DNA of 64,000 nt, taken from a virus. The translations under genes and the position numbers were made by a program. Location: IMG/VR virus record IMGVR_UViG_3300018481_000003, positions 1-64,000 of that record; one strand, 5' to 3'. How positions within the stretch are numbered: the first letter of the stretch is position 1; every line of letters begins with the position of its first letter. The notes beneath the pieces are model-generated. The model was not told the DNA's origin. It ran no database searches and worked only from the letters and a program-made list of their open reading frames with translations. Below are positions 3,793 through 56,691 of this stretch, in pieces.

Positions 3793-4155
3793 ATGTCCTA
3801 TCGCCCAGCTTCTGGCTACGAAACCGTCGTTGCTCAGAACCTTGCCCGTCGTGGTCCACTGCGCTTCGAAGAGGGCGTGGCAACCGACACCGACATCCCC
3901 AACGACTTCGGTCAAGGCGCCTACGGCGATCCCGGTGGAGATGGTCGGGGCCGTCCGTTCACGCCGATCAAGGGTCCAGAAGAGACGATGCGTGAGCGTG
4001 CCCACGTCGGTTCGGCCACTTGGATCGAGGCGCCCACGATGCTCTCCGACTTCGTCATCGGTGCTTCGATCGGCCAGGCACCGCCGTCGTTCGAACAAGA
4101 GGTTGGGTCTGAGGCACGCATCCGGCGCCTCAACCCAGCACAAGTCAGCGACTAA
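3793..4155 (+). CDS. hypothetical protein (120 aa)
   Basis: ORF 3793..4155 preceded by a strong SD, TAAGGAGG (3781-3788). Confidence 0.75.
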   Translation: MSYRPASGYETVVAQNLARRGPLRFEEGVATDTDIPNDFGQGAYGDPGGDGRGRPFTPIKGPEETMRERAHVGSATWIEAPTMLSDFVIGASIGQAPPSFEQEVGSEARIRRLNPAQVSD

Positions 4156-4178
4156 CAACTCGGGACTGCGTTACCATC

Positions 4179-4496
4179 ATGGTAGGTAGGTCGCCCGTTG
4201 GTGGCGGGAGAGGCACTATCTCCGCCGTTAGTGCCCTCGGCCCTGCCCCTCCTGGGCGGCCTATCTCTAACATCGGCAGTTATCTCATCAAGCCGACTGC
4301 TGAGGTCAACACCGGTTGGGAGATGATCAACGCCGATCCCAACGTCCTCAAGACGGTGCATCAGAAGTACCTCAAGGGGGCGATGTTGCCGCCAGCGCTC
4401 CAGCCGAAATACCTCCGCAAACCGGAGGTGATGGACACCAACCGGGCCAAGGCCATCTCCAGGGGATGGCGCAAGCCAAGGAGCAGACAGGGATGA
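4179..4496 (+). CDS. hypothetical protein; start uncertain (ATG 4179 or ATG 4322)
   Basis: ORF 4179..4496. The 3' half (MINADPNVLKTVHQKYLKGAMLPPALQPKYLRKPEV...) looks coding. Its stop overlaps the next ATG (ATGA 4493-4496). Confidence 0.45.
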   Translation: MVGRSPVGGGRGTISAVSALGPAPPGRPISNIGSYLIKPTAEVNTGWEMINADPNVLKTVHQKYLKGAMLPPALQPKYLRKPEVMDTNRAKAISRGWRKPRSRQG

Positions 4497-5017
4497 AGAT
4501 CACTGATCGTGACTTCCAGGACCTTGCTGAGGCGACGAACACGGTTGGTGGGTTCACGGTGAGCGCCAACACTGGTCGCACCCCGGTCAATCGCTTCTCG
4601 GTGGGGACAAGTGGGGAAGAGGTCAGCCACCCGATGCCAGAGACTGGGGGCAGCCTCAAGACGTTCGCTACCAGGAACAAGGCGACTTTGGCCCGCCCCA
4701 ACCGGGCCTTGGGCGGCTGGGAGCATGAAAGGCAGGCCTACCAGGACGTTCCTCGGGAGTACCCCACCACACCGTCAGGGGAGATGGCAGCCAGGTTCGG
4801 TTCTCTACGTGAGAACCAGAAGGCCTACGGCGTGCTCGGGGAGGAAGAAGAGGGCTACCTCGGTGACGTGAACAACCCGTTCCATCCTGGTTGGAGTGGT
4901 GATATCACCCCAGGTAATCCGTCTGCTGATGCTCATGTGTGGGCAGCGATGCCCAAGTACACCGAGATTACGTCGTTGCCGGGGCTTCGTCGTCGGAACG
5001 CACGGGAGAACCAGTGA
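4493..5017 (+). CDS. hypothetical protein (174 aa)
   Basis: In-frame part of ORF 4316..5017. ATG 4493 overlaps the upstream TGA. Sequence MKITDRDFQDLAEATNTVGGFTVSANTGRTPVNRFSVG... Confidence 0.7.
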   Translation: MKITDRDFQDLAEATNTVGGFTVSANTGRTPVNRFSVGTSGEEVSHPMPETGGSLKTFATRNKATLARPNRALGGWEHERQAYQDVPREYPTTPSGEMAARFGSLRENQKAYGVLGEEEEGYLGDVNNPFHPGWSGDITPGNPSADAHVWAAMPKYTEITSLPGLRRRNARENQ

Positions 5018-5159
5018 TGTCGAAGTCTGGCTCATCGTGGTCTTCCCAGTGCTCGTCGCAACGCCAGCCGTTGCCGTTCACACCAACTGCATGTTTACCG
5101 CAACGTCCACAGGCCTTGCGGGACCCCATCTTGGCGTACTTCGAACGGGTGTCCTCCAT
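4968..5159 (-). CDS. alternative: antisense 63-aa zinc-ribbon-like ORF (CxxC..CxxH)
   Basis: ORF 4968..5159(-): MEDTRSKYAKMGSRKACGRCGKHAVGVNGNGWRCDEHWEDHDEPDF.. Its third codon positions coincide with those of the sense ORF, so GC3 cannot discriminate. Weak SD, and 50 nt of convergent overlap with 4493..5017. Confidence 0.3.
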   Translation of the reverse strand: MEDTRSKYAKMGSRKACGRCGKHAVGVNGNGWRCDEHWEDHDEPDFDITGSPVRSDDEAPATT

Positions 5160-5193
5160 GCCGCTCAGTGTAGCAAGAGATTCGGTATCTTAA
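5017..5193 (+). CDS. possible small Ser/Pro/Gln-rich protein (58 aa); competes with an antisense zinc-ribbon ORF
   Basis: ATG 5017 shares a base with TGA 5015-5017 and has the SD GGGAGAA 7 nt upstream. Its TAA 5191-5193 overlaps ATG 5193 of the next gene. The sequence is low-complexity (MSKSGSSWSSQCSSQRQPLPF...). Confidence 0.4.
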   Translation: MSKSGSSWSSQCSSQRQPLPFTPTACLPQRPQALRDPILAYFERVSSMPLSVARDSVS

Positions 5194-6665
5194 TGCCTCG
5201 TCGTACCGCCCGTCAGACACCTGATGAAGGTTCGCCGCTGACCAACCCCACTGGGTCAGCTATCGGAACACACGCAGAGCCGGGAGCTTCCGGTGAAGGC
5301 TTCTACCAACGCATCGTTGGACGGAAGACCGGTCGCCCCGCTCCCCTCCCCTTTGGGCGGGGCGACCGAGTACCCCGTCATGAGGCAGTGATGGCAGCCC
5401 ATGGTCTGATGGACCAAGGCGCCGCCGACCCTCGTCAAGGACAACTGTTCGCTCCAGATGAGTTGCCGCAGGCCGAGTCTGCGAAGACCATGGCCGCAAA
5501 GCATGGTGTCGCCCCGCCACTGGCGGGGAGCCGCCCAGGGTTCATGCCCGAGTTGTATGAGAAGGCTGGCGGTGGGACGGTTTCGACTCCTGAGGCTCAC
5601 AAGCGCATGGTCGCAGGCATCAAGAGGTCCGGTGACCCTCATTTCGACCTGCCGACGAGTAACCAGAATCCCAGTCTCGGGCCAGTCGGAAGGATGATGG
5701 AAGAACGCCAGGCAACGAGGGACGCTCGCCCTGGTGATGCGCCCTGGTATGCCTCTCGTACCCCGGTATCAGACCCTGGACGAAACCCCAATCAAGGCAC
5801 GTTTGACCTCGGCCCCGGTAGTGCCACGGAGATGATCATTCACTCGTCTCGCGAGTTCGATGTCAACTACGAAACGATGAGTCGTGCGACAGCGCAGACC
5901 AGTCCACGGACCAAGTGGACGATGGGCCAGCAAGGGACCGATGACTTCTCGGCGCCCAACCTGGAGTCGGCAGAGAACGTCATCAGGGCGGTCAAGGCTT
6001 CTCGGGCCTCTGGACAGGACCGGGACATCGCCACTGTCGGGGCGACTGCTGGTGGTGCGGCGCTCCCCAAGGAGATGGCCAAGGCAGGGGTTGGCTTCGC
6101 TTTCGGCTCTCCCGACGATCCGATCAAGGTCAAGGAGATCCAGAGCCAGAAGGTCCCCAACTTCGACCAGAGCCTCCTGCTCGCCCACCCCAGCCAGGCA
6201 GTTCGCAAGCAGGCGGCGATGTCCTACACCGTCGATACCCATGACGTGCGCTCGACCGGCAAGCATGAGGACTTCATCAAGACGCCTGGTGGTATGGCCC
6301 TTACACGGATGACCGGGCGGCGCACGGCCTTGAAGAACCGGGACCTACCGCCGATGGGTCAGTCCAGGGTGTGGGAAGGGCAGAGGGACAAGGACCCTGC
6401 TCCGATGGGGCCGCATTCGATGCTGAGGACGCAGCGTTCCGGCAAGATCACCACTCGACCGGAGTCCAACGACCCCTACGTCCTGCCTGGTCCGAGTGGA
6501 AGGTTCGTAGAGACTGATCCCGCAGAGGAAGCGAAGTTCGCCCCCGAACACAGGATGAGCCACAGGTTCGTTGCCCCGGCAGATACCGGTGGTCCCTCTG
6601 TATTGTCACATCAGATGGAGGACCGGCGTTCGCCAATCGCCAAGCAATTGGGAATCGAGTTCTGA
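5193..6665 (+). CDS. hypothetical hydrophilic protein (490 aa), Pro/Gly/Arg-rich termini around a structured core
   Basis: In-frame part of ORF 4896..6665 from ATG 5193 (MPRRTARQTPDEGSPL...). The upstream extension overlaps other genes. Lies between terminase and portal. No family recognised. Confidence 0.7.
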   Translation: MPRRTARQTPDEGSPLTNPTGSAIGTHAEPGASGEGFYQRIVGRKTGRPAPLPFGRGDRVPRHEAVMAAHGLMDQGAADPRQGQLFAPDELPQAESAKTMAAKHGVAPPLAGSRPGFMPELYEKAGGGTVSTPEAHKRMVAGIKRSGDPHFDLPTSNQNPSLGPVGRMMEERQATRDARPGDAPWYASRTPVSDPGRNPNQGTFDLGPGSATEMIIHSSREFDVNYETMSRATAQTSPRTKWTMGQQGTDDFSAPNLESAENVIRAVKASRASGQDRDIATVGATAGGAALPKEMAKAGVGFAFGSPDDPIKVKEIQSQKVPNFDQSLLLAHPSQAVRKQAAMSYTVDTHDVRSTGKHEDFIKTPGGMALTRMTGRRTALKNRDLPPMGQSRVWEGQRDKDPAPMGPHSMLRTQRSGKITTRPESNDPYVLPGPSGRFVETDPAEEAKFAPEHRMSHRFVAPADTGGPSVLSHQMEDRRSPIAKQLGIEF

Positions 6666-7714: not shown

Positions 7715-8046
7715 TGGCCAAGGGACTCGCTGGCACCTACGGGACGAGGACCGAGAACCATCCCGGTCGTGTCGCCAAACGTGACGACGGTGGGGCAGGT
7801 GGTGCTGTTGTCAGCGACTACCAACGGATCGGTGACACCAACACCTACCGCACTCCTGATCGCCTGATGCACGTCGGTGTGGCCTCTGGAGCAGAGCGTT
7901 ACCCACCGCAGTCGGAGCAACCTGGGCGGGGCACACTCGTTCCGTCGTGGGAAGAGAACTTCTTGGGGGCACATCCATACCCTCAGCAGGTAGGCAGCGG
8001 CCCAGTGTCCGAGGTCATCAACAAGACGCAATGGACTCCGTCGTAA
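7714..8046 (+). CDS. hypothetical protein (110 aa)
   Basis: ORF 7714..8046, coupled at both ends. Confidence 0.65.
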   Translation: MAKGLAGTYGTRTENHPGRVAKRDDGGAGGAVVSDYQRIGDTNTYRTPDRLMHVGVASGAERYPPQSEQPGRGTLVPSWEENFLGAHPYPQQVGSGPVSEVINKTQWTPS

Positions 8047-8183
8047 TGTGGCCCGACTGCGATTTCAGGTGGGATACCGAAGCGGCAGACCACACTCATC
8101 GCTGCATCGAGCCGGACACTCATGAGGACGAGCACATCTGCGACTGTGGTGAACGATGTGACATGGGAGACAGGGCTTACTGA
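8046..8183 (+). CDS. 45-aa Cys/His/Asp-rich small protein (possible metal binding)
   Basis: In-frame part of ORF 7947..8183 from ATG 8046 (TAATG overlap). Sequence MWPDCDFRWDTEAADHTHRCIEPDTHEDEHICDCGERCDMGDRAY: 5 Cys and 5 His in 45 aa. Confidence 0.55.
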   Translation: MWPDCDFRWDTEAADHTHRCIEPDTHEDEHICDCGERCDMGDRAY

Positions 8184-8929
8184 TGAAAGGGCAGCCACAA
8201 CTAACCGGCGTCCGTTGGGGTAGGGGCGACCTCCCCAAGGTCGGCTCGGTTGAGCGTGGCGCCAAGGCGTATATGCAGTCCCAGGGCCTCCAGCATCGGC
8301 CCTCCAGCGCATTCCAGGGAATCCAAGCCGATCCCAACAACATCGCCGCCATCGGTCTGGCCGTTCGTGCTCAACAGGGAGCGCCAGCCCACATCTCCCC
8401 ACAACTGCATGCCTCGTACAAGGCGTTGACCGAAGGGGTCAACCAGCAGTACGAGCACATGACCCGATCTAAGGACAAAGGTGGCATGGGTCTGTCCGTA
8501 GAAGTTTCACGGGAAGACCCATACTCCTCTATGCACGCAGCCAGGGCCGATGTCGTGAAGAACTCACGCATCAAGGTGCTCGCCACAGAAACCACAGCGG
8601 CAGGGCACCAGGGCCAACATCCGGTCTGGTCTGCGGAGATGAACGACAAGTTCCGTGCTGTCCACGATGTCTTCGGACACCTTGCCATCGGTCGTAACAC
8701 AGCACGACATGGTGAGGAAGCTGCGGCCCAGCATCATGCTCAGATGTTCCCCAAGCAAGCTCACGCTGCTCTGTTCTCCGAGACACGGGCGCAGAACTCG
8801 GCGCTGATCTACAACCAGGCGTTCCCCCAGGACAAGCCTTACAACCTGCCTGAGTGGGCGACCAAGGCCAATCCCAAGCAGCCGACGCCCAAGCGCAAGC
8901 CGCAGGGCGAACAGTTGAGCTTGTTCTGA
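8183..8929 (+). CDS. hypothetical protein (248 aa) with a His-rich motif VHDVFGH..HGEE..HH
   Basis: ORF 8183..8929 with a TGATG overlap. No family recognised with confidence. Confidence 0.7.
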   Translation: MKGQPQLTGVRWGRGDLPKVGSVERGAKAYMQSQGLQHRPSSAFQGIQADPNNIAAIGLAVRAQQGAPAHISPQLHASYKALTEGVNQQYEHMTRSKDKGGMGLSVEVSREDPYSSMHAARADVVKNSRIKVLATETTAAGHQGQHPVWSAEMNDKFRAVHDVFGHLAIGRNTARHGEEAAAQHHAQMFPKQAHAALFSETRAQNSALIYNQAFPQDKPYNLPEWATKANPKQPTPKRKPQGEQLSLF

Positions 8930-48829: not shown

Positions 48830-49669
48830 GTGGCAATGCATTTAGTACTCGGTGATGGGGAGATGTCCAAGAAGGAACTCACCGAGACACTCAAGGACCT
48901 GTGGGACAAGGCTGGCGAGGAAGCGTTCTGGTTCATCGTCCAGGGCAAGAGCGAACCCACAGAAACCGACACCAACCTCGTCAAGTGGCTGGTGACCAAC
49001 GAGGTCTGGTTCGAAGTCCTCACCGACGACGCCGATGCGATGGACGAGCTTTACAGCGACGCCCAGGAGACGCACGTCGTCAAGCGTCTCGGGCAGAAGG
49101 CCGTCAGCCTGCTCAACACCAAGCCCGAGGAGGACGAGTCGGCCGACGTGTTGGCCCTGTTCGTCTCCGACGACTCCGCTGCCGAGGAAGACCGCTGGCT
49201 GAACAGTGTTCTCCAACTGGTGGTCGATGCCGGGTTCAAGGTCTACGGTCTGAACGACGGTCTGGTCGAAGTCGATCTCGACGGCGAGGCCGACACCACC
49301 ACAGAAGAAGAGGAAGAGGAAACTGTGCCCACCCCCACCAAGAGAGGCTCTGTCAAGAAGGCGGCAGCCGCCAAGGCAGCAGCACCGGCCAAGGCCAAGT
49401 CGTACACCAAGGACGACCTGGAAGAGATGGAACTCGATGAGTTGAAGAAGATCGCTGGCGACAAGGGCATCGAGTTGCCACCGCGCACTCGTCACGCCAC
49501 GTACATCGCCGCCATCTTGGGTGAGGACAGCAAGGACGCACCGGCAGTCGAGGTCACCAGCCCACCGGTCACCAAGACGGTGGAGTCGTCCAACGGCGAC
49601 ATCGATGAGGTTGTCGAGCAGGTTCTGGAGATCGTCATCGAGAAGTTGGTCAAAGCGCTCCAGGCGTAG
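48830..49669 (+). CDS. acidic protein with a Lys/Ala-rich linker and a SAP/Rho_N-like helix-extended-helix motif
   Basis: In-frame part of ORF 48788..49669. GTG 48830 lies 8 nt after GAAGGAG; ATG 48836 is an alternative. Contains ..TTTEEEEEETVPTPTKRGSVKKAAAAKAAAPAKAKSYTKDDLEEMELDELKKIAGDKGIELPPRTRHATYIAAIL.. Confidence 0.65.
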   Translation: MAMHLVLGDGEMSKKELTETLKDLWDKAGEEAFWFIVQGKSEPTETDTNLVKWLVTNEVWFEVLTDDADAMDELYSDAQETHVVKRLGQKAVSLLNTKPEEDESADVLALFVSDDSAAEEDRWLNSVLQLVVDAGFKVYGLNDGLVEVDLDGEADTTTEEEEEETVPTPTKRGSVKKAAAAKAAAPAKAKSYTKDDLEEMELDELKKIAGDKGIELPPRTRHATYIAAILGEDSKDAPAVEVTSPPVTKTVESSNGDIDEVVEQVLEIVIEKLVKALQA

Positions 49670-49695
49670 TTCGCGAGCACTACGTCTGTGTAGCC

Positions 49696-49732
49696 AACAG
49701 GCCCCGGTTGTCATGGGCGACCGGGGCCTGTT
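49696..49732 (+). terminator. strong intrinsic terminator-like hairpin ending the late operon
   Basis: AACAGGCCCCGGT / ACCGGGGCCTGTT, a 13-bp perfect stem with an 11-nt loop, 27 nt after the stop at 49669. Confidence 0.7.
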
Positions 49733-49745
49733 GTTATACCCGACG

Positions 49746-49774
49746 TTGTGTTGGCGTCAAAGGTACGGTACCAT
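49746..49774 (+). promoter_or_regulatory. candidate promoter (TTGTGT - 17 nt - TACCAT) positioned for a leaderless transcript starting at GTG 49782
   Basis: The -10 matches TANNNT and ends 7 nt before GTG 49782. There is no SD upstream of that start. It lies directly after the terminator. Confidence 0.35.
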
Positions 49775-49781
49775 TGTCGGA

Positions 49782-50867
49782 GTGAGCAACCCCGACTTCC
49801 ACTTACCATCGGACGAGCCGCTCTCAGCGGAGGTCCTCCGAGACATTCAGTACCGCGACGTAAAGATCATCCTTGGCCTTTCCCACTGGTGCGGCTGGAC
49901 CATCCACAAGGCCAAGACCTTCCACCTTCGGGCGTACGACGGCACGTCGATGGAAATCCCGACGAATACCAACCTCAACATCCGGGTGTTCCGGTCAAAG
50001 ATCCGCACGATCCTGCGCCACCGTGACACCGACATCTCTACGCCGGTCGGCGTGATGGTTGGTTCGATCATCGAGACGTTCAAGGTGGACAAGTCGCACG
50101 CCACGCTGCTCTGGAAGCTGGCCAACGAGGTCAAGCCAATCGCCAACGGAGAGAAGGCGGCGATGGCTGAACTTCCTGACGTGCGCCGGATCACCAAAGT
50201 CGAGCCGTGGTCGGCGCACAGTCGTACCCGCAAGGACGGCGTTACCGAGACGTACCCGTCGAAGGCCGTGATGGAGCGCACGTGGTCTGATAACACAACG
50301 GACTACGCTTGCCGCTGGGACGATTGCTCGTACACCAACGAGAACCCACGGTCAACGGCCCGTCACTACGCCGCCCACCGACGTGGCGAGGGCAAGCAGT
50401 CACAGCCCCTTCCCGATGGCGTCGATCCGACGTGGACCCCACAGAAGCGTGCTCGCATCGCCAGGCTGCGTGGAGAAGTGGACGGCGCTCTGCGTGCGGC
50501 ACTGGCTCAGAACATCGACTGGTCGGTGGTCGATCAGGCTGAGTGGATCGCCACCTGGATCATCGAACACCGTGTCGAACCGTTGGGTGACGGCGAGGGC
50601 GGCGGCAGTGAGCGGGAGTTGACGGCTGAGGAACTCCTTGACCGTATCGCTGCTCTGGCCAGCCGTGGTCGGACCCCCCTCCTGCGCCAGCAGATCGACT
50701 CGCTCAACGCAGCAGTCGAGGGCTACATGTCCGAAGTGGATACCGTCCGGGCAGAGGCGGCACTGGCTACGGCCCGAGCCGAACGAGCGGAGAACAATCT
50801 CCACACGCTCCGTGATCTGCTCAACGAAACCGATCCGATCACTAAGGAAGAGGCGCAAGATGGGTGA
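49782..50867 (+). CDS. hypothetical early protein with a C2H2-type zinc finger and a C-terminal coiled-coil (361 aa)
   Basis: In-frame part of ORF 49521..50867; the upstream part overlaps the previous gene and the terminator. GTG 49782 is the preferred start. Finger sequence YACRWDDCSYTNENPRSTARHYAAH. Confidence 0.6.
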   Translation: MSNPDFHLPSDEPLSAEVLRDIQYRDVKIILGLSHWCGWTIHKAKTFHLRAYDGTSMEIPTNTNLNIRVFRSKIRTILRHRDTDISTPVGVMVGSIIETFKVDKSHATLLWKLANEVKPIANGEKAAMAELPDVRRITKVEPWSAHSRTRKDGVTETYPSKAVMERTWSDNTTDYACRWDDCSYTNENPRSTARHYAAHRRGEGKQSQPLPDGVDPTWTPQKRARIARLRGEVDGALRAALAQNIDWSVVDQAEWIATWIIEHRVEPLGDGEGGGSERELTAEELLDRIAALASRGRTPLLRQQIDSLNAAVEGYMSEVDTVRAEAALATARAERAENNLHTLRDLLNETDPITKEEAQDG

Positions 50868-51967: not shown

Positions 51968-52045
51968 TAGCGCCCTACTGCTAGTAGGTTGATCATCGTG
52001 AACGGGGCACCACGCCCCATCGGAGCAAGAAACAGGAGTACCACC

Positions 52046-53872
52046 GTGACCGATACGAGCGCCGCCAAGGCGCGTACCACCCGGAGGAAGCTGCAAAGCG
52101 TTCCTCCCCCACCTGATCCGGCACCACCGGACCCGGTGGACTTGGAGCTACTTGAAGAGTGCTCCCAACACACCATGGAGGACGGCAGGCAACTGCTGTA
52201 CTTCGAAGACGGGCAGAAGCCGAGCGACGTGCTGCTGGAGGCAGTCGATGTCGTGGTGGCCGAGAACAACATGCGGTTGCAGGCAGGAGGGTTCCACCCC
52301 GACCTAATCTTCCGCAGCGGCAAGGACAGTGGGCAGTTCGTCACCCTCGCCAAGGATGACGACGGCACCGTGGTCGTCAAGCCGCTGACCAACGTCGGCA
52401 TCTCGATGGCCTTGCAGAGTCGCTTCTGCTACCTCGCTGGGAAGAAGGTCAAGACGCACCGTCCGATGCCTGGCTGGTTCGCCGGGGCATTGAACTACGG
52501 CAACACCGAGTACCGCTTCCCGATCCTCAACGGACTGCTCAACCATCCGGCCATCCATCTCGACGGCAACATCGTGGACCGTGAGGGCTACGACCCGGTG
52601 ACCAAGTGCTGGGTCGTCGCTGGTTGGGACAACCTCAAGGTTCCGGCCAAGCCGAGCGCCAAGCAGATGACGGCGGCGATCCAAACGCTGCGTGAGCCGT
52701 TCGAAGAGGTCATCTTCGCTGGCGACAACGTGGTCGATGCCAGCCCGGTCAAGGGCGACGGAGCGATCATGGTGGCGAGCGAGGCCAACGCCCTCGGGTT
52801 GATGTTCACCCCGTTGGTGCGGGCGCAGTTGACGACTGCACCGTTCTTCATCATCACGTCGAGTCAGTGGGGCACGGCCAAGGGCCTCGTCGCCACGATC
52901 ATCTCGATCATCGCTCAGGACAGCGCACCGTTGCTCACCGACATGAAGATCAGCCCCGATCAGATGGAGAAGAACGTGGACCGCGTGCTCCACGACCATC
53001 CCGGCGCCAAGATCATCCAGTTCGATGAGCCGCAGGACGCCAACAGTGGTGGTCGGTTCCACAGTCGCAAGCTGGCTCTGCTGGCGACGACCGACAAGTA
53101 CGTCAACCGTCCGGTGTACGGGCGGGCGGCGGTGTCGGTGGACACACGACGGACGATGATCTTCACCGGCATCAACATCAGGCCCGACCAGGACATGGTG
53201 CGTCGGGTCAGCTTCATCGAGTTGGCCCTCCCGGAGGATGGCACGCTGCCCCATGAGCGTGAGTTCAAGCATGAGGACCGCAACGACAAGGTGAAGCTCC
53301 AGCAGTGGGTCAGCGCCAACCGGCGCAACTTCATCGCTGCGATGCTCACGCTGGTCAACGGATGGCGGGAGGCGGGCTGCCCGCAAGCCGACTTCTCCTT
53401 CGACTTCCCCGAGTGGGTCCACACTGTCGGCGGCATCCTCCAGAATGCCGGTATCACAACGTGGATGGCCAACCGCAACGACGTGTACTCCAACGCTGAC
53501 GAGGCGTTGAAGACGGCCTTCATTCTCGGTGTCGCAGGAGTCACCGGAGCGGGACCGTTCACGTCACGGCAGATCGCCAAGCTGCTGATCAACTCCAAGC
53601 AGTCCGAGGAACTGATGGACAAGCTGGCCTGGGACGACACCTGGGCACGCAAGCTCCACCAGGGATGGAAGGACGAGGACGAGATGACCTACTGCATCGG
53701 TCGGCTGCTGGGCGGGTTGAAGGACCGGCTCCTGGCGGACGGCAACGGTGGTCGGATCATCGTGTCGTCTCCCGGCGTCAACCACGCCAAGCAACAGGTG
53801 TGGACTTTCACGACTCCTGGGGTGACAGTGCCTCAGGTCAAGCGAGGTCGTCCCCGCAAGTCCACTCCGTAA
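52046..53872 (+). CDS. P4/D5-type (SF3) primase-helicase-like protein with a non-canonical P-loop and a C-terminal AT-hook
   Basis: In-frame part of ORF 51989..53872. GTG 52046 lies 8 nt after AGGAG. Layout ..RFPILNGLLNHPAIHLDGNIVDREGYDP..FFIITSSQWGTAKGLVATIISII..KIIQFDEP.. The P-loop position reads SSQWGTAKG rather than GxxGxGK[ST]. The protein ends ..VKRGRPRKSTP. Confidence 0.45.
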   Translation: MTDTSAAKARTTRRKLQSVPPPPDPAPPDPVDLELLEECSQHTMEDGRQLLYFEDGQKPSDVLLEAVDVVVAENNMRLQAGGFHPDLIFRSGKDSGQFVTLAKDDDGTVVVKPLTNVGISMALQSRFCYLAGKKVKTHRPMPGWFAGALNYGNTEYRFPILNGLLNHPAIHLDGNIVDREGYDPVTKCWVVAGWDNLKVPAKPSAKQMTAAIQTLREPFEEVIFAGDNVVDASPVKGDGAIMVASEANALGLMFTPLVRAQLTTAPFFIITSSQWGTAKGLVATIISIIAQDSAPLLTDMKISPDQMEKNVDRVLHDHPGAKIIQFDEPQDANSGGRFHSRKLALLATTDKYVNRPVYGRAAVSVDTRRTMIFTGINIRPDQDMVRRVSFIELALPEDGTLPHEREFKHEDRNDKVKLQQWVSANRRNFIAAMLTLVNGWREAGCPQADFSFDFPEWVHTVGGILQNAGITTWMANRNDVYSNADEALKTAFILGVAGVTGAGPFTSRQIAKLLINSKQSEELMDKLAWDDTWARKLHQGWKDEDEMTYCIGRLLGGLKDRLLADGNGGRIIVSSPGVNHAKQQVWTFTTPGVTVPQVKRGRPRKSTP

Positions 53873-53988
53873 TGCGGGGGGATGCGGGGGGATCAACCCC
53901 GACCTTCGGAGGTCCAGGGCATTGTCCCTGGGCCTTCGTCGTTGTGGGCTGGAAGGTGGCCGAACATCCCCCCGCATCCCCCCGCATT
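53871..53988. repeat. perfect 23-bp inverted repeat (each arm = 2 x ATGCGGGGGG) enclosing a 72-nt three-hairpin core
   Basis: 53871-53893, AATGCGGGGGGATGCGGGGGGAT, is the exact reverse complement of 53966-53988. Inner hairpins lie at 53901-53914, 53914-53931 and 53931-53961. TTTATTAT follows. Confidence 0.85.
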
Positions 53989-54005
53989 TATTATCTCAAT
54001 GCGTG

Positions 54006-54036
54006 CGTTGATATCAACGTGGTAGCTCGCTATGGT
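54006..54036 (+). promoter_or_regulatory. candidate promoter (TTGATA - 17 nt - TATGGT) overlapped by the 14-bp palindrome CGTTGATATCAACG (operator-like)
   Basis: Palindrome 54006-54019; -35 at 54008-54013; -10 at 54031-54036 (TANNNT). Lies 34 nt upstream of ATG 54070, which has a GGAGGA SD. Confidence 0.4.
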
Positions 54037-54069: not shown

Positions 54070-54792
54070 ATGGAGCACACGAAGTACGAGGCCCTCGTCA
54101 ACGAGGGGAGGAATCTTTGGACGAACAGCAAGCAGGCTCAGGCCCGCTTGATGGTCATCCTCAAGATCGTTCAGGACGACGGCTGTCTCGACACCTACTG
54201 CGAGGACATCGGCCTCACCCCGGCAACGGCGAAGAACTACCTCGCCGCCTACGACAAGTTTCTTGACCTCGGCTTCGTCCCTGGGTCGGGAGATGGCGTC
54301 GATCAGACCATCGTCAGGATGTGGGAAGACATCTACGACCCGACGCTTTTCGATCCGCGCTATAGCACGGTGGATCGTGAAGGTGTGGACGCCGCCGCCA
54401 GAGAGTTGGAGTTGAGAGGTTCGACCAAGGCCTACGACATCGCCAAGAACCCCAACTCGATGAAGGCGGCAATCATCGGTGACGGACGTGCCGCTTCGGC
54501 AGCAGTCGAAGCGATCATCGCCAGGGCCAAGACCGATCCGTTGATCGCCATCGCTTTGCGGGCTGGCTTTCGTGACACCCCGCCTCGTCCTCTGGACCGT
54601 CCGCATCGGGACGCCGACACCATCGTCAGGGATGCTCTGCACTCTCTCGACCATGCGGCCATCCGCCTGACCGAGATCGACGTTCCTGACTACATGGCCG
54701 ATCTCGTCGCCCGTCATGTGGGGAACTCCCTCGGCATTCTCCACAACGTCATCACGATCATGAGGGGGAAGGGGGTGTTGCAGGACTTGTAG
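54070..54792 (+). CDS. hypothetical early protein (240 aa), possible HTH near the N-terminus
   Basis: ORF 54070..54792 with SD GGAGGA. Sequence ..CEDIGLTPATAKNYLAAYDKF.. Confidence 0.65.
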   Translation: MEHTKYEALVNEGRNLWTNSKQAQARLMVILKIVQDDGCLDTYCEDIGLTPATAKNYLAAYDKFLDLGFVPGSGDGVDQTIVRMWEDIYDPTLFDPRYSTVDREGVDAAARELELRGSTKAYDIAKNPNSMKAAIIGDGRAASAAVEAIIARAKTDPLIAIALRAGFRDTPPRPLDRPHRDADTIVRDALHSLDHAAIRLTEIDVPDYMADLVARHVGNSLGILHNVITIMRGKGVLQDL

Positions 54793-54863: not shown

Positions 54864-55382
54864 ATGAGCATTGCTCAGGCAGCAGCGCTGCGAACACACC
54901 TCCAGAACCTCACGACATCAGGGGCGGCGATCACCGCCTACCCGGATGCCGAGGAACTGGTTCTCAACTGGGGGGCCACGACTTACGACGTGGCTGATCT
55001 CGTCAGAGCCGTCCGTCAGGGCTGCCCTCCCGGTTACATCATCCCGTTCGTCTGCAAGTGGACGGACATGCGGGTGATCATGGCCCACGGCAACGGCCAG
55101 TGGTTCACTCACGCCTTGCTGGCGACGGCAGCTTCGATGTCGTACTGCAAGACGAGACTGCGGAACGTCGCTCGCGACTTCCGCAACATGGCGGCAGGGT
55201 TCCCGGCAGGGACGCCCTTCCGTGTGAGCACGGAGAACTTCTGCTCCGTGGTCGAGGCGTTCACGGCACCGGGCTACGGCCCCCTGTCCATCGCCATCAC
55301 CCAGTTGCCGATGCTCGCTCGTCGGGCCTCGGCAGCAGAACGGGCGTTGCTCACCAGTGAGGCGGCACGTTACGCTGCCTAG
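54864..55382 (+). CDS. hypothetical early protein (172 aa)
   Basis: ORF 54864..55382 with SD AAAGGGGA. Confidence 0.65.
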   Translation: MSIAQAAALRTHLQNLTTSGAAITAYPDAEELVLNWGATTYDVADLVRAVRQGCPPGYIIPFVCKWTDMRVIMAHGNGQWFTHALLATAASMSYCKTRLRNVARDFRNMAAGFPAGTPFRVSTENFCSVVEAFTAPGYGPLSIAITQLPMLARRASAAERALLTSEAARYAA

Positions 55383-55461
55383 TTCACAGGTGGTTACCGG
55401 TTCGGACCCGGTCTGTTGCTCATGAGGCGCAGTAAGGCTCAAACGGAGAGCTACCAACCAG

Positions 55462-55494
55462 GAGCCGCCCTTCGGGGCGGCTCTTGTCGTTATT
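55462..55494 (+). terminator. intrinsic terminator
   Basis: GAGCCGCCC-TTCG-GGGCGGCTC followed by TTGTCGTTATT. Confidence 0.75.
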
Positions 55495-55504
55495 ATGCCA
55501 ACAC

Positions 55505-55577
55505 GCCGGGTTAGCTCAGTAGGCAGAGCAGTCGCCTTGTAAGCGACAGGTCGTCCGTTCGAACCGGACACCCGGCT
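55505..55577 (+). tRNA. tRNA-Thr (anticodon UGU)
   Basis: Hand-folded cloverleaf. Acceptor GCCGGGT/ACCCGGC; D arm GCTC-AGTAGGCA-GAGC; anticodon arm GTCGC-CTTGTAA-GCGAC (TGT); variable AGGTC; T arm GTCCG-TTCGAAC-CGGAC; discriminator T. Confidence 0.9.
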
Positions 55578-55602
55578 CGACGTAACATGAGTCCAGACAA
55601 GC

Positions 55603-55637
55603 GAAGAGGCCGGGGGACTTGCATTCCCGGCCTCTTC
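55603..55637 (+). terminator. terminator-like hairpin downstream of tRNA-Thr
   Basis: GAAGAGGCCGGG / CCCGGCCTCTTC, a 12-bp perfect stem with an 11-nt loop. The tail is not U-rich (ATAAACC). Confidence 0.5.
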
Positions 55638-55665: not shown

Positions 55666-56592
55666 ATGGATAAGGGTAAGGGACGGCAAGCCAGGTTGCA
55701 AGCCTACGACGCCATCAGGCGGATGGAGAGGCCCGACAGCATCACGCCGACCAACTGGAATCGGGTGGAGCAACTGCTCTGGATCATCGCTCGCCGGTAC
55801 CCGAAGGCCTACCCCAGCCAGGAACGGTTGGCCGCTGAAATGAAGTTGAGTACTCGCACAGTACGTCGGTTGATTCGCATGGCTAGAGAGGCCGGGTTGC
55901 TAACGGTGTGGCGTGATGCAGGGACGAAGAAGCGTCACAGTTACTCCAAGACGAACTGGTATCACATCACGGAGTTGCTAGAGCATGAGGACAAAGTGTC
56001 CCCATTGAATGAGGACAGAATGGCCTTCGAAGGTACAGGTGATACTTCCGTATCCCCGTACCAGCAAACACCACCTTCGGTGAAGAGAACTTCGTTCTCT
56101 TCTCCTACGAGTGGTTCGGCCCGCCAGCGGCGGGGCCGAACTACGGTTGAGAAGGTGGACAAGAGCCGAGCAGAACAGATCGCTGCGGCAGCAGGGGATC
56201 GGCGCATCGAGAGGCGACCACGGCAGAAGGAGTTCAATCCTTCTCGGCGCCTGGCTTCCCACTTCCTGGACCAGTGGGAGAACTTGTGCCAGCACCAGAC
56301 ATCGCTGCGCGACTTCCGCCCCGCCGACTCGGTGGGTCAGATGGTTGGTTACTTCCGGGCCACCTTCCTGGCTCCGGTTGCCGGTCGCGTGTACACCCCC
56401 GATGAGGTTCGTGAGTACATCGACCAGTTCATCGAAGAGGTCCGTCGCGGGGACGTACAGGTCAAGCGGAAGCAGTCAGCGTTCATGCGCTTCTGCGGGT
56501 GGTGGGGGCGGGATCGGTCCCCGGACATGCCCGCAGATGTTTCTCGCCGGTACCACGAAGAGGCCTTGACGAAGCGACAGCGGGCGCAGTAA
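55666..56592 (+). CDS. winged-helix/HTH DNA-binding protein (possible replication initiator or regulator)
   Basis: 308 aa with SD GAGG. HTH-like segment ..SQERLAAEMKLSTRTVRRLIRMAREAGLLTV.. Confidence 0.55.
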   Translation: MDKGKGRQARLQAYDAIRRMERPDSITPTNWNRVEQLLWIIARRYPKAYPSQERLAAEMKLSTRTVRRLIRMAREAGLLTVWRDAGTKKRHSYSKTNWYHITELLEHEDKVSPLNEDRMAFEGTGDTSVSPYQQTPPSVKRTSFSSPTSGSARQRRGRTTVEKVDKSRAEQIAAAAGDRRIERRPRQKEFNPSRRLASHFLDQWENLCQHQTSLRDFRPADSVGQMVGYFRATFLAPVAGRVYTPDEVREYIDQFIEEVRRGDVQVKRKQSAFMRFCGWWGRDRSPDMPADVSRRYHEEALTKRQRAQ

Positions 56593-56612
56593 CTTCACTT
56601 CCTCATCAAGTC

Positions 56613-56663
56613 CCCCCCAGGGCCAGTAGGCCATGGCCGTGGTCCTGGGGTAACCCTGGGGGG
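56613..56663. repeat. 10-bp perfect inverted repeat CCCCCCAGGG / CCCTGGGGGG with a palindrome-containing 31-nt loop
   Basis: The arms are at 56613-56622 and 56654-56663. The loop contains GGCCATGGCC and an alternative pairing partner, GGTCCTGGGG. Confidence 0.7.
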
Positions 56664-56691
56664 TTCCTGATGGGGAGGACGAAAGGACTTG

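Follow-up and report, generated by a model that had tools for sequence, protein, structure and literature searches.

In the archaeal plasmid pRN1, a stem-loop of about 100 nt (a 21-nt stem and a 58-nt loop) lies 3' of orf904, a PrimPol/SF3-helicase/winged-helix gene; it is necessary, works when relocated, requires the symmetry of its stem and is sufficient for replication when supplied with the replication operon (PMC4234260). Within the pRN1 family, the structure is conserved despite low sequence conservation and has a terminator hairpin beside it, a similar stem-loop occurs 3' of the replication gene of Bordetella phage BIP-1, and it has been proposed that primase/SF3-helicase/winged-helix replication proteins assemble at such stem-loops (PMC4234260). 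In the staphylococcal SaPIs, rep is directly followed by iterons that flank an AT-rich centre, two or more per side and in opposite directions, and that are read by a winged helix in the C-terminal domain of Rep (PMC9371898). The subject of this work is an element of 118 nt found in a stretch of viral DNA of 64,000 nt (the window; positions 1 to 64,000 of the IMG/VR record IMGVR_UViG_3300018481_000003), directly behind the gene for a primase-associated P-loop ATPase-like protein of 627 amino acids (aa). Comparison with related loci shows this element to be real, conserved, clade-specific and linked to the ATPase gene. It is built in two layers, an inner transcription terminator and a pair of outer arms that may be read as double-stranded DNA, and the function tentatively favoured for it is that of an origin-like assembly site.

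Architecture and fold of the element

A 23-nt arm, AATGCGGGGGGATGCGGGGGGAT, and its exact reverse complement enclose a core of 72 nt (coordinates in Table 1). Each arm holds two tandem copies of the decamer ATGCGGGGGG, giving four exact copies, two on the + and two on the - strand, with no further exact copy in the 64 kb and matches with one mismatch at chance frequency. The left arm shares the last two bases of the TAA (53870-53872) that ends the open reading frame (ORF) at 51989-53872. All of these features, along with an AT-rich tract (TTTATTATCTCAAT), a palindrome and a promoter-like sequence beyond the right arm, had been pointed out in a preliminary description of the window and are present as reported. 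The inverted repeat is the longest and cleanest in the window, and by hand arithmetic, made with no tool, a perfect 23-nt repeat within 300 nt is expected only about 3e-7 times per 64 kb.

Both as RNA (-87 kcal/mol, z = -7.6, with 0 of 200 shuffles as good) and as single-stranded DNA (-46 kcal/mol, z = -7.55), the element folds far more stably than shuffled sequences. The minimum-free-energy fold and the comparative consensus agree on an outer stem leading to a 6-bp middle stem and one 12-bp inner hairpin. This differs from the cloverleaf-like core of three hairpins that had been proposed, which is unsupported because the consensus structure uses the bases of the first and third of these hairpins, both of which draw on positions already held by the covariation-supported inner hairpin; the second is real as the tip of that hairpin but is not a separate one. 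The suggestion of a stable structured RNA is also unsupported, as neither an Rfam family nor a tRNA corresponds to the element: Rfam covariance models return only microRNA-precursor (long-hairpin) models at 31 bits against a gathering threshold of 83, and a search for tRNA and tmRNA with ARAGORN gives nothing at this position. In a fold of the truncated transcript that ends at the inner terminator, the CAACCCCG motif behind the left arm can pair with the G-run that precedes it.

Conservation and linkage to the upstream gene

Among 5.8 billion proteins, the 627-aa protein has only seven close relatives, at 62-88% identity, the window's own copy being recorded as P0001. The clade considered here comprises the window and the seven loci that carry these relatives (L014-L020), and two contigs encoding the protein P0012 (L035 and L036) serve as outgroup. 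In 7/7 fetched loci, the gap directly after the homologue holds the same architecture, that is, a perfect arm of 19-24 nt, a C-run resembling ATCAACCCC, a GC-rich hairpin with a T-rich tail, a variable segment, the complementary arm and an AT-richer stretch, the 30 nt past the right arm being 37-50% GC in all relatives. The left arm starts inside the stop codon or 0-5 nt past it in 9/9 genomes.

The flanks do not share this constancy. Across the loci, at least five unrelated families supply the gene that comes after the element, one such gene being chimeric, and the upstream genes vary too, while in L017 the ATPase gene and the element stand alone amid genes of the opposite strand. The exchange of neighbours around the ATPase gene and the element places the breakpoints of mosaicism outside that unit.

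The outgroup protein P0012, a stand-alone relative at about 50% identity that emerged from an exhaustive profile search, provides an out-of-sample test. Behind its gene, the element is present again, with an arm that overlaps the TAA, two G4 units per arm and the ATCAATCCCC motif, and in its 3' part with a terminator-like inner hairpin followed by GTTGTG and a complementary right arm followed by TTATCTC. In more distant phage homologues (phiAsp2 Pas55, RcXuper and phiCbK gp146), the domain lies inside proteins of 1200-1400 aa and no comparable element follows their genes, downstream of which there are only short gaps or ordinary terminators; this absence makes the element specific to the small clade. 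The preliminary description had named a lack of the element, or of conserved decamers or arms, in related phages as an outcome that would speak against it, and what is found is an architecture kept in nine genomes with unit sequences that vary.

Inner hairpin and outer arms

The two layers become apparent from an alignment of the eight clade elements (A2), whose consensus has a 20-pair outer helix, a 6-pair middle helix and a 12-pair inner hairpin. Covariation, recommended earlier as a check on the homologous intergenic regions, is found in both the outer stem and the inner hairpin: 0 of 500 column shuffles reach the observed value on any of five measures, and shifting the partners by 1-3 columns lowers pairing from 95% to 43-55%. 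In the outer helix, both sides change in 10 of the 20 pairs and changes on one side only do not occur. Watson-Crick pairs fill 139 of its 140 cells and there is no G·U, a count that leaves out L019, a contig whose name 'np1212' may indicate a nanopore assembly and which is probably error-prone, its left arm resembling a homopolymer-error version of its own perfect right arm. The middle helix is 87.5% paired with little covariation.

The inner hairpin behaves differently. Five of its pairs change on both sides and four vary via G·U, with 10 G·U on the + strand against one A·C, which would be a G·U on the opposite strand, and this imbalance marks the inner hairpin as an RNA structure read from the + strand. 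The outgroup hairpin, read by eye with no tool count, adds two further + strand G·U. The difference in G·U frequency between outer and inner helix has a Fisher p of 3e-4, in which independence is overstated as the sequences are related. A GC-rich inner hairpin of 12-14 bp is present in 9/9 genomes, and the homologous hairpins of L016, L018 and L020 are called as + strand intrinsic terminators by a terminator scan, whose criterion their tails pass; the tail of the window, TCGTCGTTGT, falls below it. Weak T-tails are typical of terminators in high-GC hosts. In stem and tail, the hairpin resembles the window's own canonical terminator at 55459-55486, and generic terminators retrieved in a core-motif scan of metagenomes have GAAGGCCC...GGGCCTTCGTCGTT in common with it. 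On this comparative evidence, the operon ending at 53872 is closed on the + strand by what appears to be an ordinary intrinsic terminator, formed by the inner GC-rich hairpin and its T-rich tail. The earlier alternative of a terminator between two transcription units is correct as far as the inner hairpin is concerned. The outer arms behave as DNA repeats.

In 7/8 clade genomes, each arm is a tandem pair with a period of 10, its units identical over at least 9-10 nt, and two units stand on each side in opposite orientation in every genome including the outgroup. The units have six different sequences in all: GCGGGGGGAT in the window, AGGGGGGATC in L014, GTAGGGGATC in L015, L017 and L020, (G)GGTGGGGAT in L016, GTAGGGGGTT in L018 and GGTGGGGATC in L019. 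All four copies of one genome carry the same variant, even when L014 is compared with L015, whose ATPase cores are 97% identical, so that the units evolve in concert. An RNA stem needs complementarity between left and right only, and thus gives no reason for the identity of the units within an arm. The distance from arm to arm falls into two classes, 71-72 nt (window, L014, L015 and L020) and 81-82 nt (L016-L019), and the 3' part of the core is of unrelated sequence among L016, L017, L018 and L019; as the two classes differ by one helical turn of DNA, a constraint on spacing is suggested. Across the fetched loci, the unit sequences are found only in their own element, except for one exact copy in L020 at 2288. 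The arms are thereby shown to be strictly complementary tandem-unit repeats that evolve in concert, and from these properties they are putatively assigned as double-stranded DNA binding sites.

Wider searches returned no further members. IMG/VR was scanned for protein patterns taken from each of the two flanking proteins and from the alignment, to no result, and a protein-pattern scan of JGI metagenomes likewise gave nothing; exact look-ups of the window's own proteins found no match on record. A scan of metagenomes for the core motif at the DNA level returned unrelated sequences only, some of them ordinary terminators, and no match among viral contigs. In public collections of viral and prokaryotic genomes, the 20-mer of the arm retrieved only (CCCCCCGCAT)n microsatellites. 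Such decamer microsatellites, (ATGCGGGGGG)n or (CCCCCCGCAT)n in 3-7 copies (L010 4846-4895; L011 7361-7400; L013 2693-2752; L006 19-60), are intergenic in Streptomyces, Actinomadura, Kitasatospora and a metagenome-assembled genome of Mycobacterium, often just upstream of a gene start, and are unrelated to the hairpin element.

The upstream protein

The start of the ORF upstream of the element is uncertain, the public call P0001 of 565 aa implying a start near 52175. Sequence searches with the 627-aa protein in Pfam, NCBIfam and the Protein Data Bank (PDB) gave no match. Residues ~170-510 align to the C-terminal halves of 'DNA polymerase/primase' proteins (PHROGs, BLAST), and the exhaustive profile search returned 3,947 cluster representatives at E <= 1e-10, mostly of 500-1000 aa and with the domain in the C-terminal half. 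In 42 sampled members of this superfamily, the partner domains are Prim-Pol, NrS-1 polymerase HBD, DUF3854, PolA, PriCT and RepB-primase. Profile searches of PDB sequences yielded nothing beyond spurious or weak matches; the deeper profile finds only a weak one (E = 0.17), to the chains 6k9c and 6k9e labelled 'Primase', which we take to be the C-terminal region of the NrS-1 primase-polymerase.

Stretches resembling helicase motifs are present (GTAKG, IIQFDE, FTGIN and RR), and all 42 superfamily members have D346, G394 and R406, while N396 and R405 come close to invariance. An SF3-like helicase is therefore a plausible identity; of the 'SF3-like' label given earlier, the motif-like stretches stand, but Pfam, NCBIfam and the PDB lend it no support. 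The P-loop-like motif QWGTAKG (residues ~293-299) is invariant in 8/8 orthologues and departs from the superfamily consensus PQxGTGK, which suggests that the ATPase activity of the clade protein may be altered.

The full-length AlphaFold model is poor, with a predicted local distance difference test score (pLDDT) of 49. The C-terminal ~100 aa are modelled with confidence (pLDDT ~85) as a helical bundle with a beta-hairpin, followed by the basic tail KRGRPRKS, and this domain is the fastest-evolving part of the protein, at 45-65% identity against 62-83% elsewhere. An AT-hook had been recognised in the tail, and the sequence is indeed at the C-terminus (KRGRPRK in the window), but the GRP core is kept in just 4/8 orthologues, the others having only a basic Gly/Pro tail.

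Possible functions of the element

Taken together, these observations make it quite possible that the element binds protein and is the origin-like site at which the adjacent primase-associated ATPase assembles. It would form a two-layer module at the 3' end of the ATPase gene in which the arms, as the second layer, serve as recognition sites in double-stranded DNA, each of two 10-bp iteron-like units, that face each other across 7-8 helical turns and also lend the DNA the potential for a stem-loop of ~118 nt. A sequence-specific phage protein would bind the two units of each arm and assemble head-to-head on both arms, the likeliest binder being the product of the gene directly upstream, the ATPase, through its fast-evolving C-terminal domain, and the outcome would be an origin-like loading or assembly site. 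The unit sequence would then be the phage-specific identity of the site, which would explain the joint change of all four copies between close relatives. Support for an origin comes from the inheritance of the element with the upstream gene in nine genomes whatever the flanks, from the DNA-type constraint on the arms, and from the location of the pRN1 and SaPI origins in the same place. The idea of an origin was already put forward in the preliminary description and is retained as the best single hypothesis, but not for the reasons given there, as the centre is GC-rich and the palindrome non-conserved: the AT-rich tract belongs to the zone of the terminator tail and promoter, and the neighbouring palindrome is not conserved in the relatives L014-L020.

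Several points weigh against an origin-like site. The core between the arms is 57-69% GC, at or above the locus average, its lowest 20-mer is 40-60% GC, and it contains a very stable hairpin and no unwinding element. The terminator of any gene travels along with it, so that linkage alone shows no relation between a protein and its site, and only nine related genomes are available, whose counts are not independent. In the outgroup, the units are 7/9 identical with a period of 9, one G-G mismatch interrupts the arms, and the arm spacing of 111 (75-76 or 83-86 in the others on that scale) fits neither class; the DNA-type features of the arms are thus strong within the clade but not absolute. The protein has no primase domain, no match to a curated helicase family or to a solved helicase structure, and a P-loop that reads GTAKG against the consensus GTGK, and comparison of its C-terminal domain with PDB structures gives a best E-value of 0.11, which is not significant, the weak matches including scattered winged-helix domains. 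Two tests relating ATPase residues or domain similarity to the unit sequence found none that tracks the units. Finally, the phage has a complete lambda-like module (O-like initiator, DnaC-like loader, DnaB and DnaG-like primase) and does not require a second origin, and the conventional origin candidate in the O-like gene, described below, lessens the need for the 118-nt element as an origin.

A device acting in RNA only, namely a nested 'fail-safe' terminator with an RNase III site, is a somewhat unlikely alternative. Transcripts stopping at the inner terminator would be left with a protective 3' hairpin, and read-through RNA would form a perfect double-stranded stem of 20-24 bp with a U-rich tail, which terminates again or else serves as a substrate for RNase III, whose cut would detach the upstream message or make it less stable, in the manner of the retroregulation of lambda sib/tI. 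In that system, the longer RNase III stem encloses a terminator and arises only in read-through RNA; the primary paper, Plunkett and Echols 1989, is among the references of PMC5371410. The highly stable fold and the covarying complementarity of the stem agree with such a device, as does a stem of 19-24 bp on the transcribed strand, since this amounts to about two helical turns and about two helical turns of double-stranded RNA are the size needed by RNase III. The terminator is nested, so that in the folds the outer stem forms on read-through only; the sequence behind the right arm is U/AT-rich in all relatives, the left arm adjoins the stop codon, and the element is transcribed because all genes here lie on the + strand. 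In L017, the next gene begins 37 nt past the element with no recognisable promoter, which implies read-through, and further nested hairpins stand after replication genes in the window, for example at 56600-56676. An RNA device nonetheless leaves unexplained the tandem identical 10-nt units of each arm, the absence of G·U in ~140-160 pairs against ~10% G·U in the adjacent hairpin, and the 72/82-nt spacing where the sequence is replaced, and the generic long-hairpin microRNA models offered by Rfam lie far below threshold.

The same DNA-level evidence as for an assembly site (units, lack of G·U, spacing and covariation) would also suit a regulatory DNA site, in which a phage transcription factor uses the four units as operators and, by looping or clamping the region of the terminator, sets the level of read-through out of the ATPase operon into the next unit as a roadblock or insulator, with the terminator palindrome doubling as a protein-binding site. 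Such a double use has a precedent in the yobI terminator, whose palindrome is also a LexA site and lowers read-through (bioRxiv 10.64898/2026.08.19.745784). The position at an operon boundary fits as well, and in the window and L014 the right arm is followed by a promoter at a distance of 9-19 nt. A regulatory role is nevertheless unlikely. Exchanges of the downstream promoter, its operator-like palindrome and the downstream gene leave the element in place behind the upstream gene, so that it is not the control region of the downstream unit, and there is no candidate regulator that recurs in its vicinity from locus to locus. The proteins encoded downstream, being of several unrelated families with no recognised DNA-binding domains, were discarded as constant partners. 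The units, moreover, occur once per locus, whereas repressor operators and stoperators usually recur.

An improbable reading is a dual-coded, transcription-gated origin, in which the element would be at once the RNA terminator of a self-loading helicase-like gene and the DNA assembly site for its product. RNA polymerase that terminates at the inner hairpin would not reach the right arm, and read-through would transcribe the whole origin, producing the 23-bp RNA stem or displacing bound protein, so that use of a second origin would be coupled to the transcription programme; the rapid change in concert of the four 10-bp units would represent a phage-specific replication identity separate from the lambda-type O/DnaB origin. 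A mobile or selfish inverted-repeat element resembling a miniature inverted-repeat transposable element, or a functionless palindrome of chance or mutational origin, could draw on the terminal inverted repeats, internal direct repeats and ~118-nt length and on the decamer microsatellites of the same sequence in actinobacterial genomes, but is effectively refuted by the single copy per locus with none elsewhere in the window, the lack of a target-site duplication (the flanks are T/T), an arm 20-mer that in public collections is never a hairpin element and only a tandem microsatellite, and the identical position with compensatory changes in nine diverged genomes. A G-quadruplex, attP arm sites, an invertible segment, a protelomerase site, a pac site, parS, a retron and a CRISPR-like repeat were also set aside, as the required partner gene, symmetry or repeat orientation is absent in each case.

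Genomic setting

The window has a GC content of ~60%, all of its long ORFs are on the + strand, and structural genes at ~2.2-48.5 kb are followed by the replication region (Table 1). A near-identity search of GenBank phages with the window found no match. The nearest cultured relatives are BRock-like Streptomyces siphophages of ~113-116 kb, with a terminase at 48% and a DnaB at 30% identity, and this kinship indicates that the host is probably an actinobacterium.

Table 1. Positions of the element, its parts and the neighbouring features in the window
Feature	Position	Strand	Remarks
Gene for the 627-aa primase-associated P-loop ATPase-like protein	51989..53872	+	ORF; orthologues 62-88% identical
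Left arm	53871..53893	+	units GCGGGGGGAT at 53874-53883 and 53884-53893; overlaps TAA
ATCAACCCC-type motif	53894..53901	+	CAACCCCG in the window; after left arm; kept in 8/9 genomes
Middle stem	53902..53957	+	ACCTTC 53902-53907 with GAAGGT 53952-53957; closes branched core; consensus fold
Inner GC-rich hairpin	53908..53937	+	GGAGGTCCAGGG, loop CATTGT, CCCTGGGCCTTC; arms 53908-53919 and 53926-53937
T-rich tail of inner terminator	53938..53947	+	GTCGTTGTGG within TTCGTCGTTGTG
Right arm	53966..53988	-	exact reverse complement of left arm; units 53966-53975 and 53976-53985
AT/T-rich tract	53989..54002	+	after right arm, upstream of next promoter; possible U-tail of outer stem
Palindrome CGTTGATATCAACG	54006..54019	+	with the following promoter, for gene 54070-54792
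Promoter-like TTGATA-17-TATGGT	54008..54036	+	for gene 54070-54792
First gene downstream	54070..54792		function not recognised
Second gene downstream	54864..55382		function not recognised
Terminator	55459..55486		
tRNA-Thr	55505..55578		
O-like/RepC-like initiator gene	55666..56592		HTH_36, phrog_270/391
DnaC-like loader, DnaB, DnaG-like primase, SNF2 helicase			next in this order

The palindrome beyond the right arm overlaps the -35 of the promoter-like sequence, and both belong to the downstream module and not to the element. The palindrome at the -35 varies with the family of the downstream gene and is operator-like (CGTTGATATCAACG in the window, 54006-54019; GAGTTGTCACAACTC in L014, ~7839-7853), while L016, L019 and L020, which have homologous downstream genes, share a GGCCTGTTG(C/T)GCC motif just past the right arm. 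A strong sigma-70-like site on the minus strand at 54017-53990 (TTGATA-16-GATAAT with TG, 10/12 matches), which points leftward into the element, was dismissed as a side effect of the palindrome together with the AT tract, no relative having it.

Among the genes that follow the element, an 'X' family occurs in the window (54070-54792), L015, L017 and L020, and a 'Y' family in L016 (2549-3388), L019 and L020. The gene after the element in L018 (2156-2920) is a chimera, its first ~90 aa resembling the 'Y' family and the remainder the 'X' family, so that modules have been shuffled directly beside the element. In L014, the gene directly after the element (7935-8792) is ParB-like (phrog_1033, E = 8e-13; DUF6551), and none of the other loci has such a gene in that position. 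The ATPase gene of L020 is split into overlapping ORFs at 4027-4734 (235 aa) and 4710-5900 (396 aa), by a frameshift or an assembly error, and its element is intact.

GC skew is uninformative here because all genes are on one strand. The O-like genes of L014, the window and L019 hold tandem repeats at a spacing of 24 nt inside the coding region, with sequences that vary from genome to genome. In L014, these are three clean 24-mers, GGACCATGACCAGTCAGTGGTCAC, at 1898-1969 with internal dyad symmetry; the O-like gene of the window has two 17-mers (starting at 55985 and 56009 and spanning 55985-56025) beside short palindromes at 56079-56105 and 56111-56144, and that of L019 has two repeat pairs at 5303-5345 and 5467-5504. 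The O-like proteins are only 23-35% identical between these genomes, as expected for initiators with matched iterons. Iterons inside the gene of an O-type initiator are in the classical position of the lambda origin (PMC7466680). The element is not at this position, being located between genes and 1.7 kb ahead of the O-like gene, and a conventional lambda-type origin probably resides inside that gene, about 2 kb downstream of the element.

Other structured sequences occur in the window. The tRNA-Thr(TGT) at 55505-55578 is bracketed by terminator-like hairpins at 55459-55486 (tail TCGTTATTAT) and 55603-55637 (GAAGAGGCCGGG...CCCGGCCTCTTC), and a tRNA-Val(CAC) at 1976-2048 stands just before the terminase gene. 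The hairpin at 56600-56676 is formed by a CCCTGGGGGGTTCCTGATGGGGA repeat that is 83% complementary, with an inner GGCCATGGCC palindrome, and folds at -54.6 kcal/mol with a z of only -2.6. Another long but imperfect inverted repeat at 49672-49756, with 37-nt arms that are 73% complementary and a loop of 11 nt, overlaps the first ~240 nt of the ORF at 49521-50867 and thus may lie inside the gene or just upstream of its true start.

Comparison with known systems

Besides pRN1 and the SaPIs, three known systems share individual features with the element. In lambda sib/tI, as here, a terminator is embedded in a longer dyad symmetry, and the long stem, which is long enough for RNase III, forms only in read-through RNA; tandem-unit arms, a lack of G·U and spacing classes are not features of RNase III sites. 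If the element nonetheless acted in RNA, it would be a clean example of a nested terminator and processing site, in which the unusually strict stem would still need an explanation. At yobI, one DNA sequence is both an RNA stem-loop and a protein-binding palindrome at an operon boundary, as would be the case here, with the difference that the terminator stem there is itself the site, whereas the putative sites of the element stand on either side of its terminator and are inherited with the upstream gene. The origins of SF3 initiators (SV40 site II, the papillomavirus E1 binding site, and the phage P4 alpha ori with its crr iterons) are made of short recognition repeats, of which four, arranged as two inverted pairs, nucleate the head-to-head assembly of the hexameric initiator-helicase. 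In P4, the winged helix of alpha binds the origin repeats (PMC4234260). The element shares the four short repeats in two inverted pairs, but the pairs of SF3 origins are adjacent or form a compact palindrome by an AT tract, while those of the element are 72-82 bp apart.

The likeness to pRN1 is one of overall geometry. In both cases, a large stem-loop lies just past the gene for a replication protein, here with a 23-nt stem and a 72-nt loop in the window and with stems of 19-24 nt and loops of 71-82 nt, beginning at the stop codon, in all clade genomes. A terminator hairpin is associated with it, the structure is kept despite changes in sequence, the stem is symmetrical, and the ATPase module is one common to Prim-Pol fusions. 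The stem differs from that of pRN1, which is described without iterons, in being made of tandem 10-nt units. No primase domain is present in the protein, which is a putative helicase with a putative winged helix, the latter suggested by topology only, and the element belongs to a bacterial (actinobacterial-type) host and a phage-like genome of ~118 kb with a lambda-like replication module.

The likeness to the SaPIs is one of repeat arrangement, with repeats placed right after a helicase-type ORF, two per side in opposite orientation and of element-specific sequence, and with recognition assigned to a C-terminal domain, which for the ATPase is a proposal. SaPI iterons, in contrast, are 5-6 nt long and 6-12 in number, as compared with four units of 10 nt, and their AT-rich centre melts, whereas the centre of the element is 57-69% GC and holds a terminator hairpin. 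Neither sequence nor structure comparison detected homology of the 627-aa protein to SaPI Rep. By analogy, then, the element may work like the origins of pRN1 and the SaPIs but is not counted as a member of either family, in view of the GC-rich centre and of a protein without a primase or a demonstrated helicase or winged helix.

Should the arms prove to be a loading site of the ATPase, large actinophage-like genomes would join the archaeal pRN plasmids and the staphylococcal SaPIs, the only replicons in which experiments have addressed the design of a helicase gene with its own stem-loop or inverted-iteron origin directly behind it, and would do so in a variant that has the GC-rich terminator of the gene in place of a melted centre. 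With six unit sequences, and proteins of 62-97% identity, the system would then offer natural specificity variants, usable for studies of initiator-origin co-evolution and for orthogonal Streptomyces replicons. Set beside its closest counterparts, the element combines the stem-loop geometry of pRN1 with the two-iterons-per-side arrangement of the SaPIs.

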